Shown: one piece after another, positions 2 to 381 of the stretch
How the letters are laid out: each line of letters starts with the position of its first letter
Numbering within the stretch: the stretch's first letter is position 1
Assembly: GCF_003334385.1 (NCBI RefSeq)
Contig: NZ_QOWN01000186.1
DNA: 382 nucleotides
Source: Escherichia coli
GTDB taxonomy: Bacteria > Pseudomonadota > Gammaproteobacteria > Enterobacterales > Enterobacteriaceae
Reading direction: 5' to 3' (one strand)
Notes under the pieces: generated by a model
The model's database searches: none
The model's input: the letters and a program-made list of their open reading frames with translations, nothing else
Told to the model about the DNA's origin: nothing
Made by a program: the position numbers and the translations under genes

Positions 2-77
2 GGGTCGTTAGCTCAGTTGGTAGAGCAGTTGACTTTTAATCAATTGGTCGCAGGTTCGAATCCTGCACGACCCACCA
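2..77 (+). tRNA. lysW: tRNA-Lys, anticodon UUU (window 35-37), 76 nt with encoded CCA (75-77)
   Basis: Read directly: 7-bp acceptor stem GGGTCGT/ACGACCC, D-arm GCTC-AGTTGGTA-GAGC, anticodon arm GTTGA-CTTTTAA-TCAAT (one G-U pair), T-arm GCAGG-TTCGAAT-CCTGC, discriminator A, CCA. Matches the E. coli-type tRNA-Lys(UUU) from memory. The paralog symbol is a best guess from recalled K-12 spacer lengths; lysT is equally possible because the Lys copies are identical. Confidence 0.95.
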
Positions 78-80
78 GTT

Positions 81-103
81 TTAACATCGAAGACAGATGT
101 TAA
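81..103. other. Perfect interrupted palindrome TTAACATC-N7-GATGTTAA, a potential stem-loop 4 nt after the tRNA-Lys CCA
   Basis: 81-88 (TTAACATC) is the exact reverse complement of 96-103 (GATGTTAA), with a 7-nt loop GAAGACA (89-95). The sequence is directly visible; the function is unknown. Confidence 0.6.
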
Positions 104-157
104 GCGTGTAGGATAACGTTGCGTCAGCAGCGGCCCGTAGGGCGAGCGAAGCGAGTC

Positions 158-175
158 ATCCTGCACGACCCACCA
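158..175 (+). repeat. 18-nt perfect copy of the tRNA-Lys 3' end (ATCCTGCACGACCCACCA: T-arm 3' strand, acceptor 3' strand, discriminator, CCA) inside the Lys-Val spacer
   Basis: Window 158-175 is identical to window 60-77 and to 364-381. The two bases before it (156-157, TC) differ from the tRNA (58-59, GA). It is followed by CT (176-177), as the genuine tRNA-Val CCA is followed by CTC. Confidence 0.9.
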
Positions 176-190
176 CTAATGACGGTGGGT
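168..190 (+). other. Inverted repeat ACCCACC / GGTGGGT with a 9-nt loop, a potential hairpin that would sequester the CCA-containing tRNA-Lys 3' fragment
   Basis: 168-174 (ACCCACC) pairs with 184-190 (GGTGGGT); the loop is 175-183 (ACTAATGAC). A second GGTGG follows at 193-197. No U-tract follows, so it is not a typical intrinsic terminator. Confidence 0.4.
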
Positions 191-226
191 TCGGTGGAAG
201 TAGTTTGTAGTATCCAGCGCAGTATC

Positions 227-302
227 GGGTGATTAGCTCAGCTGGGAGAGCACCTCCCTTACAAGGAGGGGGTCGGCGGTTCGATCCCGTCATCACCCAC
301 CA
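227..302 (+). tRNA. valZ: tRNA-Val, anticodon UAC (window 260-262), 76 nt with encoded CCA (300-302)
   Basis: Read directly: acceptor stem GGGTGAT/ATCACCC, D-arm GCTC-AGCTGGGA-GAGC, anticodon arm CCTCC-CTTACAA-GGAGG, T-arm GGCGG-TTCGATC-CCGTC, discriminator A, CCA. Matches the E. coli-type tRNA-Val(UAC) from memory. The paralog symbol is tentative; valT is the alternative. Confidence 0.95.
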
Positions 303-305
303 CTC

Positions 306-381
306 GGGTCGTTAGCTCAGTTGGTAGAGCAGTTGACTTTTAATCAATTGGTCGCAGGTTCGAATCCTGCACGACCCACCA
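306..381 (+). tRNA. lysY: tRNA-Lys, anticodon UUU (window 339-341), 76 nt with encoded CCA (379-381)
   Basis: Identical in sequence to the tRNA-Lys at 2-77. It starts 3 nt (CTC) after the CCA of the tRNA-Val. The paralog symbol is tentative; lysW is the alternative. Confidence 0.95.

Follow-up and report, generated by a model that had tools for sequence, protein, structure and literature searches.

A predicted stem-loop between a copied tRNA-Lys 3' terminus and the native lysW trailer in the lysT operon of Escherichia coli

Background

Does the spacer between lysW and valZ in the lysT operon of Escherichia coli form a hairpin around a stray copy of a tRNA-Lys 3' terminus, and is such a hairpin part of tRNA processing or a by-product of how the spacer was assembled? 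The question is raised by a 382-nt stretch of E. coli DNA, referred to below as the window, that comparison with a K-12-like locus identifies as the lysW-spacer-valZ-lysY segment of the operon. A first-pass annotation of its letters had noticed an 'orphan' tRNA-Lys end in the spacer, followed by GGTGG motifs complementary to it, and had proposed that these either fold the pseudo-3' end into a closed stem or compete for the authentic acceptor 3' strands.

In K-12 the lysT operon is transcribed as one RNA of about 1100 nt, from which RNase P releases the tRNAs in 3'->5' order; the basis of this order is given as unknown (PMC4176162). RNase E cuts the long spacers only in the absence of RNase P, and RNase P itself cleaves poorly when a long 3' trailer is present; long 3' trailers of Lys pre-tRNAs are removed by RNase II and PNPase, after which RNase T trims the end (PMC4176162). 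Literature searches on the function of RtT, rttR or the lysW-valZ spacer gave only this paper and general remarks.

Anatomy of the locus

The features of the window are collected in Table 1. Besides the orphan, the 98-nt module that follows lysW holds, according to the folds, a local hairpin (81-88/96-103) and a long RtT stem (about 105-167). The 18 nt of the orphan are 100% identical to 60-77, the first copy of the direct repeat, and to 364-381.

Table 1. Features of the 382-nt window and the evidence for each
Feature	Coordinates	Strand	Evidence
tRNA-Lys(UUU), lysW	2..77	+	ARAGORN; Rfam tRNA, 79.2 bits; operon position from the K-12-like locus L001
RtT-like repeat module, 98 nt	78..175	+	Rfam RF00391 match 9-175; folds; allele comparison
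'Orphan' tRNA-Lys 3' terminus ATCCTGCACGACCCACCA, direct-repeat copy 2	158..175	+	Repeat search
Hairpin 5' arm, ACCCACC	168..174	+	Sequence reading; inverted-repeat search; pair probabilities
Hairpin loop, 9 nt, ACTAATGAC	175..183	+	Sequence reading; E. coli allele alignment
51-nt unit, lysW 3' trailer + valZ 5' leader	176..226	+	Allele comparison; the entire lysW-valZ spacer in most E. coli
Hairpin 3' arm, GGTGGGT, within native lysW 3' trailer	184..190	+	Sequence reading; repeat search; allele comparison; pair probabilities
Second GGTGG, the better conserved copy	193..197	+	Pair probability 0.95; kept in 9/11 orthologous trailers
tRNA-Val(UAC), valZ	227..302	+	ARAGORN; Rfam; K-12-like locus
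tRNA-Lys(UUU), lysY	306..381	+	ARAGORN; Rfam; K-12-like locus

The Rfam covariance model for RtT RNA (RF00391) scores 52.8 bits over positions 9-175 (E = 1.2e-9; gathering score 45), a score to which the genuine tRNA-Lys contributes through its alignment with the 5' portion of the model. Because the match is above threshold, the orphan is identified as the 3' boundary of an RtT-like repeat module. By score and by architecture the module is a member of the RtT family, and it ends, as such repeats do, with a duplicated host-tRNA 3' terminus of about 18-19 nt that includes the CCA (158-175 = 60-77). The hairpin at 168-190 lies partly outside the family model, which ends at CCACCA (position 175 of the window), leaves CCACCA unpaired in its consensus structure and does not extend to 184-190. 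In the K-12 lysT operon RF00391 has five matches, each long spacer having one and the remaining one lying beyond the terminator.

Other identities for this region were considered and rejected. The orphan is not a tRNA gene or pseudogene: it is merely the last 18 nt of tRNA-Lys, it has no cloverleaf, and ARAGORN and Rfam call tRNAs only at 2-77, 227-302 and 306-381. A coding role has no support, the region being overlapped only by short ORFs with non-ATG starts. One of these, at 119-232 on the plus strand (37 codons, TTG start, MRQQRPVGRAKRV...), covers the hairpin together with the RtT-like core. In some sources the tyrT RtT repeats carry an annotated small basic protein (tpr), a possible parallel. 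A Chi site (GCTGGTGG) is absent from the window, in which the nearest sequences are only ACGGTGG and TCGGTGG.

Several further observations concern the sequences around the hairpin. Directly 3' of the genuine lysW end, the local hairpin at 81-103 (TTAACATC-N7-GATGTTAA) belongs to a trailer family found in many genera, and the trailer alignment displays compensatory changes in it (ACATC/GATGT versus ACACC/GGTGT; AATGTC/GATATT). At the other end of the spacer, the leader before tRNA-Val at 204-226 (TTTGTAGTATCCAGCGCAGTATC; general form GTATCCAGCG[C/T]AGTATC) is nearly invariant across many genera of the Enterobacteriaceae, and stays so even where the remaining trailer differs or spans just 26 nt. 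The window itself has G at position 130 where K-12 and all matched genomes have A (cagcaGcgg versus cagcaAcgg), so that an A-U pair in the small hairpin of the RtT core becomes G-U. An identical spacer is found in 0 of 5426 genomes (best match 99.3%). A rare allele or an old difference in sequencing could explain G130.

The hairpin at 168-190

Reading of the sequence and a repeat search bear out the motif that had been noticed: 184-190 is the exact reverse complement of 168-174, giving a perfect 7-bp inverted repeat, and a second GGTGG follows at 193-197. The repeat search likewise confirms the complementarity to the CCCACC ends of tRNA-Lys and tRNA-Val, since GGTGGGT can also pair with 70-76, 295-301 and 374-380, the authentic ends of lysW, valZ and lysY. 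Which of these partners is chosen? Minimum-free-energy folding places the stem 168-174/184-190 in the whole window, in the spacer and in every sub-window tested that includes it, which supports the idea of a pseudo-3' end held in a closed stem. All its pairs have a probability of at least 0.9 in every context with the exception of the outermost, A168-U190, which falls to 0.79 in sub-window 150-226 and to 0.58 in sub-window 160-200. The idea of competition for authentic acceptor 3' strands is not supported for this allele: pairing of 184-190 to the lysW, valZ and lysY ends has a probability of at most 0.002. Folded alone, 165-193 gives -13.0 kcal/mol (z = -3.4).

The 7-bp complementarity exceeds chance modestly. 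With the orphan held fixed and the 51-nt trailer dinucleotide-shuffled, a complement of at least 7 nt with a loop of 3-14 nt arose in 1.2% of 5000 shuffles, and a perfect 7-bp hairpin at any position of the spacer arose in 3% of shuffles. GGTGG and CCACC together occur six times in the window against 0.94 expected, four of the six being tRNA ends.

For the second GGTGG the folds predict a partner in the valZ leader (helix 192-198/213-219, pair probability 0.95). Orthologous spacers display no compensatory changes in this helix, of which one strand is invariant. The whole 149-nt spacer is thereby predicted to be almost fully paired, as four helices in a row (81-103, the RtT stem at about 105-167, hairpin 168-190 and helix 192-219). 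On these folding results the hairpin is a real, stable and robustly predicted stem-loop in the lysW-valZ spacer RNA of the lysT operon. To our knowledge it has had no earlier description.

Alleles of the spacer in E. coli

Of 5426 complete E. coli genomes, 5339 contain the 48-nt block 168-215, which occurs there in two settings. The short allele, found in EDL933, BL21 (BL21-AI), ST131 (O25b:H4 strain) and strain 300709, has a 51-nt lysW-valZ spacer in which the genuine lysW 3' end is directly followed by CTAAT(G/T)ACGGTGGGTTCGGTGGAAG... The long allele, found in K-12, an O113:H21 strain and strain 504838, has a spacer of 149-150 nt with the block on the orphan; compared with the short allele it carries 98 additional nt (78-175), with the 18-nt direct repeat 60-77/158-175 at their boundaries. 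Among 40 evenly sampled matches the block overlaps an annotated tRNA-Lys in 27 and belongs to the long allele in 13. We relied on this sample for the allele share because a junction query for the long allele is confounded by the joining of pieces in BLAST, its count (2308 of 5426 genomes) being an upper bound only.

Because the block adjoins the genuine lysW end in short-allele strains, GGTGGGT is a native part of the lysW trailer. About two thirds of E. coli lack the RtT-like module at lysW-valZ, and the module, and hence the orphan pairing, is therefore dispensable; judged from the alleles, the pairing is a secondary consequence of a strain-variable repeat module. Among the E. coli alleles examined only two sites are polymorphic, both in the loop (179 A/G and 181 G/T), the arms being invariant.

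What does the trailer do in the majority of strains, where it stands directly 3' of the genuine lysW end? The folds predict that it masks the CCA of lysW. With the cloverleaf arms of lysW constrained in the fold and no constraint on its acceptor stem, that stem stayed closed and the short-allele trailer shifted register, pairing C74 C75 A76 C U with GGUGG (5-6 bp). C74 and C75 are paired to the trailer with P = 0.96-0.99 in three E. coli alleles, and the ST131 loop change A179G adds a sixth pair in the shifted register. The other Escherichia lineages keep the CCA end of the orthologous spacer paired by other means. In one, G184A replaces a U-G pair by U-A (CCACU/AGUGG); in another, a GGT insertion gives ACCACU/GGUGGU; E. 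albertii pairs CCAAUC with GAUUGG (P = 0.99 and 0.50 for its two copies); and a fourth lineage uses the distal UGGUGG (P = 0.80). The folds thus contain four different sequence solutions within Escherichia.

The presence or absence of modules is a general feature of this operon. Every RtT-like module of the lysT operon that was compared (window 78-175; L001 1212-1346 and 2027-2158; L003, L005 and L092) is present in some E. coli strains and absent from others, always exactly between a tRNA-Lys end and its trailer. In K-12 the lysT-valT spacer measures 135 nt and the lysZ-lysQ spacer 132 nt; the former is 35 nt in EDL933 and ST131, the latter 33 nt in the O113:H21 strain and ST131. The number of tRNA genes in the operon is 6-7 across strains. 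A further example of copy-number change among identical tRNA genes is the valU operon of a K-12-derived strain (L091, 6412-6689), which has two tRNA-Val genes plus lysV and not three; there an RtT-like element flanked by duplicated terminators lies 3' of lysV, as after lysQ.

The pseudo-ends in the other K-12 spacers have different predicted partners. That of the lysY-lysZ spacer pairs with a downstream AGAUUGG (P about 1.0), that of the lysZ-lysQ spacer with an upstream GGUGG across the module (P about 0.64), and that of the lysT-valT spacer is less well paired.

The modules of the tyrT and lysT operons have a common RtT core (ACGUUGC-N4-GCAACGG, CCCGNAGGG, CGAAGCGA; 115-157 of the window compared with the minus strand of the tyrT region in L090). 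Towards the 3' end each module invariably follows the sequence of its host tRNA, and the switch occurs at AAUCC, a T-loop/T-stem sequence common to both tRNAs, which suggests that the modules spread or were homogenised through recombination at this conserved tRNA sequence.

Conservation across the Enterobacterales

Species-representative genomes were scanned for a tRNA-Lys end, 25-55 nt and a tRNA-Val start, which yielded 83 loci in Enterobacterales and three in Oceanisphaera. The Lys->Val trailers at these loci are very diverse. The first-pass annotation had offered absence of the motif from orthologous spacers as evidence against the hairpin, and the outcome is divided: the 7-nt arm is absent outside E. 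coli and Kluyvera, but the GGTGG core persists in 9 of 11 aligned second Lys->Val spacers. In the two Kluyvera species concerned, the arm follows an orphan with a quite different loop. The three non-coli Escherichia lineages sampled each have a changed arm (AGTGGGT, GGTGGTGGT and GATGAGT), and E. albertii has ATCGTAAAGATTGG in its place. Because the arm is altered in these lineages and absent from most genera, selection on the 7-bp form is weak at best.

The spacers that keep the GGTGG core include those of E. coli, Kluyvera genomosp. 3 and Pseudocitrobacter; the core is GGCGG in K. georgiana and is missing in E. albertii. Pseudocitrobacter has only the distal GGTGG. In the window the two motifs form an imperfect 9-nt tandem at 183-191/192-200 (CGGTGGGTT / CGGTGGAAG), and this tandem, together with the occurrence of its second unit only in Pseudocitrobacter, suggests that the proximal arm arose by a small duplication.

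The annotation had also named covariation as a check on the stem. The 7-bp helix itself cannot covary because its 5' arm is invariant tRNA sequence; it is among the trailers of tRNA-Lys more generally that hairpins of the form CCA-NNN...N'N'N'-UGG do so.

Trailers that engage the CCA end

The hairpin can be placed in a class that we propose to call CCA-engaging trailer hairpins of enterobacterial tRNA-Lys, which is not a curated family and is defined by a trailer segment within about 20 nt that pairs C74/C75/A76, with or without adjacent nucleotides, of a genuine or copied Lys 3' end. Hairpin 168-190 belongs to it, with a probability of about 1.0 in the orphan register and of 0.96-0.99 in the register with genuine lysW.

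Is the class more than a chance collection? The following statistics on enrichment and covariation are drawn from related sequences and are not phylogenetically independent. Among 343 unique trailers of genuine and orphan ends at the 83 Enterobacterales and three Oceanisphaera loci, 54 have Watson-Crick complements of at least 5 nt to the Lys 3' end with a 3-14 nt loop, against 15.0 +/- 3.5 (maximum 26) in shuffles; complements of at least 6 nt number 19 against 3.1. In full tRNA context, C74/C75 are masked with P > 0.9 in 27.5% of 211 unique genuine trailers, compared with 14.3 +/- 1.8% (maximum 19%) of shuffled ones. The overall effect is modest, the mean masking probability being 0.45 against 0.39 in shuffles, and with ACCA plus trailer only and the acceptor closed it is not convincing (0.414 against 0.380 +/- 0.020); the signal is clear only at high-probability thresholds or with full tRNA context.

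Covariation was sought in trailers with TGG 7-18 nt downstream of the CCA. The 3 nt after the CCA are fully complementary to the 3 nt before the TGG in 18% of genuine ends (permutations 4 +/- 2%) and in 42% of orphan ends (permutations 8 +/- 5%), and the resulting CCA-NNN...N'N'N'-UGG hairpins have five distinct arm types. This pattern in the aligned trailers points to some real covariation, and it is the enrichment and covariation of CCA-including hairpins in enterobacterial tRNA-Lys trailers that is the more interesting generalisation. GGTGG/UGG-type complements lie 7-9 nt past the CCA in several trailer families that look unrelated, with varying loops. The valU trailer, which follows another tRNA ending in CCACCA, has no GGTGG.

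One family has a different arrangement. In ATCGYT..GGTGGAA..GCGAT trailers (L001 1212-1240 and homologues) the GGTGG lies inside the loop of a local stem that covaries (ATCGC/GCGAT, TCGTT/AACGA, TATC/GATA), and because of this position the motif may be displayed in the loop rather than paired to the CCA.

Possible roles of the hairpin

The reading we put first, and regard as evenly balanced between right and wrong, is that the native lysW trailer has been captured by the adjacent orphan to give a structural cap or an exonuclease barrier. The trailer contributes an arm, GGUGGGU, complementary to the tRNA-Lys 3' terminus. In the long allele the RtT-like module between lysW and the trailer brings its own copy of the last 18 nt of the tRNA and, because this copy is placed beside the trailer, the trailer is predicted to pair with it, as the nearest terminus, in the 7-bp register. 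The 7-bp helix stacks, in the folds, directly atop the long RtT helix, so that the pseudo-CCA end is closed and not free; without the module the trailer is predicted to pair with the genuine CCA end in the 5-6 bp register. Cleavage by RNase P at the valZ 5' end leaves the four-helix spacer as a 3' trailer for RNase II and PNPase to remove. The hairpin would stand in the way of these 3'->5' exonucleases, so that trimming is slowed and an RtT-like by-product could become more stable. Because RNase II and PNPase stall at stem-loops, we infer that a processing-related cap or barrier is the most likely role.

A serious rival, to our minds possible though rather less than probable, is that the hairpin is neutral: a GGTGG-type tandem happens to lie beside a tRNA ending in CCACC, recombination between 18-nt repeats has set an orphan next to it, and a hairpin that may well form has no consequence. 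The tandem can be read directly in the sequence and Pseudocitrobacter has just the one distal GGTGG; the proximal 7-nt arm has degenerated in each of the three other Escherichia lineages, and most genera lack it; and the coming and going of modules among strains leaves tRNA gene content unchanged. The invariance of the arms within E. coli says little where the overall identity is about 98%. Against neutrality, both common E. coli polymorphisms fall in the 9-nt loop, the four Escherichia solutions all keep the CCA paired, the complements recur at a similar distance from the CCA in families that look unrelated, and the extensions of the arms covary.

If the hairpin is functional, spacers would not be inert in a heavily used tRNA operon. 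By recognising the CCA of its own tRNA, a trailer could control the availability of that end to RNase P, to exonucleases and to aminoacylation, and RtT-like repeats could serve as decoy 3' ends; the hairpin would also offer a concrete way into the 3'->5' order of RNase P cleavage in this operon. If it has no function, the anatomy is still clarified, the orphan being the boundary of a strain-variable module and the complementarity an inheritance from the native lysW trailer.

Could the same pairing set the order in which the tRNAs are released? The CCA of the substrate is known to contact the GGU of the P15 loop in RNase P RNA. A trailer that pairs C74/C75 would block it, so that the upstream 5' cut awaits removal of the trailer and a 3'->5' order results; the orphan would be a decoy that frees the genuine CCA in the allele of the window. 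We consider this improbable. In its favour, the operon is processed 3'->5' and RNase P cleaves poorly before a long trailer (PMC4176162), masking is enriched among genuine Lys trailers, and the lysW CCA of the short allele, like that of other Escherichia, is predicted to be masked with P of at least 0.8, except in one E. albertii copy of two (0.50). In K-12, however, where the order was demonstrated, genuine Lys CCA ends with full spacers are predicted to be masked with a probability of just 0.005-0.38 and the valU trailer gives 0.12. In many genera, too, the Lys->Val trailers are short and lack structure (P = 0.007 for the Citrobacter type). Because the genuine Lys and Val CCA ends of K-12 are mostly predicted to be unmasked, CCA masking was rejected as a general cause of the RNase P order. 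The widest form of the idea, in which CCA-including trailer hairpins are cis-acting maturation timers or decoys that hide the CCA from the P15 loop and from 3' trimming until a cut downstream releases it, and in which strain-variable RtT pseudo-3' ends absorb the masking strand, setting how fast and in what order maturation proceeds in each strain, we hold to be decidedly improbable; if true, it would give a sequence-level basis for the 3'->5' processing of the lysT operon by RNase P.

A role at the level of transcription, in which pairing hides the C-rich, G-poor pseudo-terminus (CCUGCACGACCCACCAC) so that the untranslated 149-nt spacer offers Rho no loading site, is very improbable. The spacer is indeed predicted to be almost fully paired, and the RtT repeats downstream of tyrT reportedly host a Rho-dependent terminator, but the C-rich stretch is far below the typical length of a rut site and other RtT-like modules of the lysT operon leave their tail less well paired. 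An intrinsic terminator or attenuator between lysW and valZ is effectively refuted, as the annotation had anticipated: the 7-bp stem is GC-rich, but the sequence after it (UCGGUGGAAG) has no U-run, scans of the window returned 0 terminator-like sites and no promoter, and the operon is transcribed as one 1100-nt RNA (PMC4176162).

Comparison with known systems

How does the proposed cap or barrier compare with systems already described? The terminator hairpins after lysQ and lysV are GC-rich stem-loops close 3' of a tRNA-Lys CCA, as is hairpin 168-190, and the K-12-like locus has a true intrinsic terminator 3' of lysQ. Hairpin 168-190 has no U-tract, and it differs from them also in building its stem from the very tRNA sequence next to the CCA.

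In RNase P RNA (GGU of the P15 loop) and in the T-box antiterminator bulge (UGGN), a GGU/UGG strand likewise pairs with the ACCA end of a tRNA, a likeness in working principle only. Those motifs act in trans, within large folded RNAs, on mature or 5'-unprocessed tRNA, whereas the lysW trailer motif lies in cis, 8-9 nt downstream of the end that it pairs, which in the window allele is a pseudo-end.

The 3'ETS-leuZ RNA, reportedly an sRNA sponge, is likewise a strongly structured transcribed spacer of a polycistronic tRNA precursor, released by processing. The likeness is by structured spacer alone, since the only complementarity found for the lysW trailer is to the 3' end of its own tRNA.

Closest is the RtT RNA, with its RtT-like repeats, an element first described in the tyrT operon. 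The lysT module has the conserved core hairpins ACGUUGC..GCAACG and GCCC-GNA-GGGC, and in both operons the repeats end with a copy of the host tRNA 3' terminus including CCA, that of tRNA-Tyr in tyrT. The differences are that the 3' arm of the hairpin, 184-190, comes from the tRNA trailer and so lies outside the repeat, and that the repeat copies in tyrT precede other sequences.
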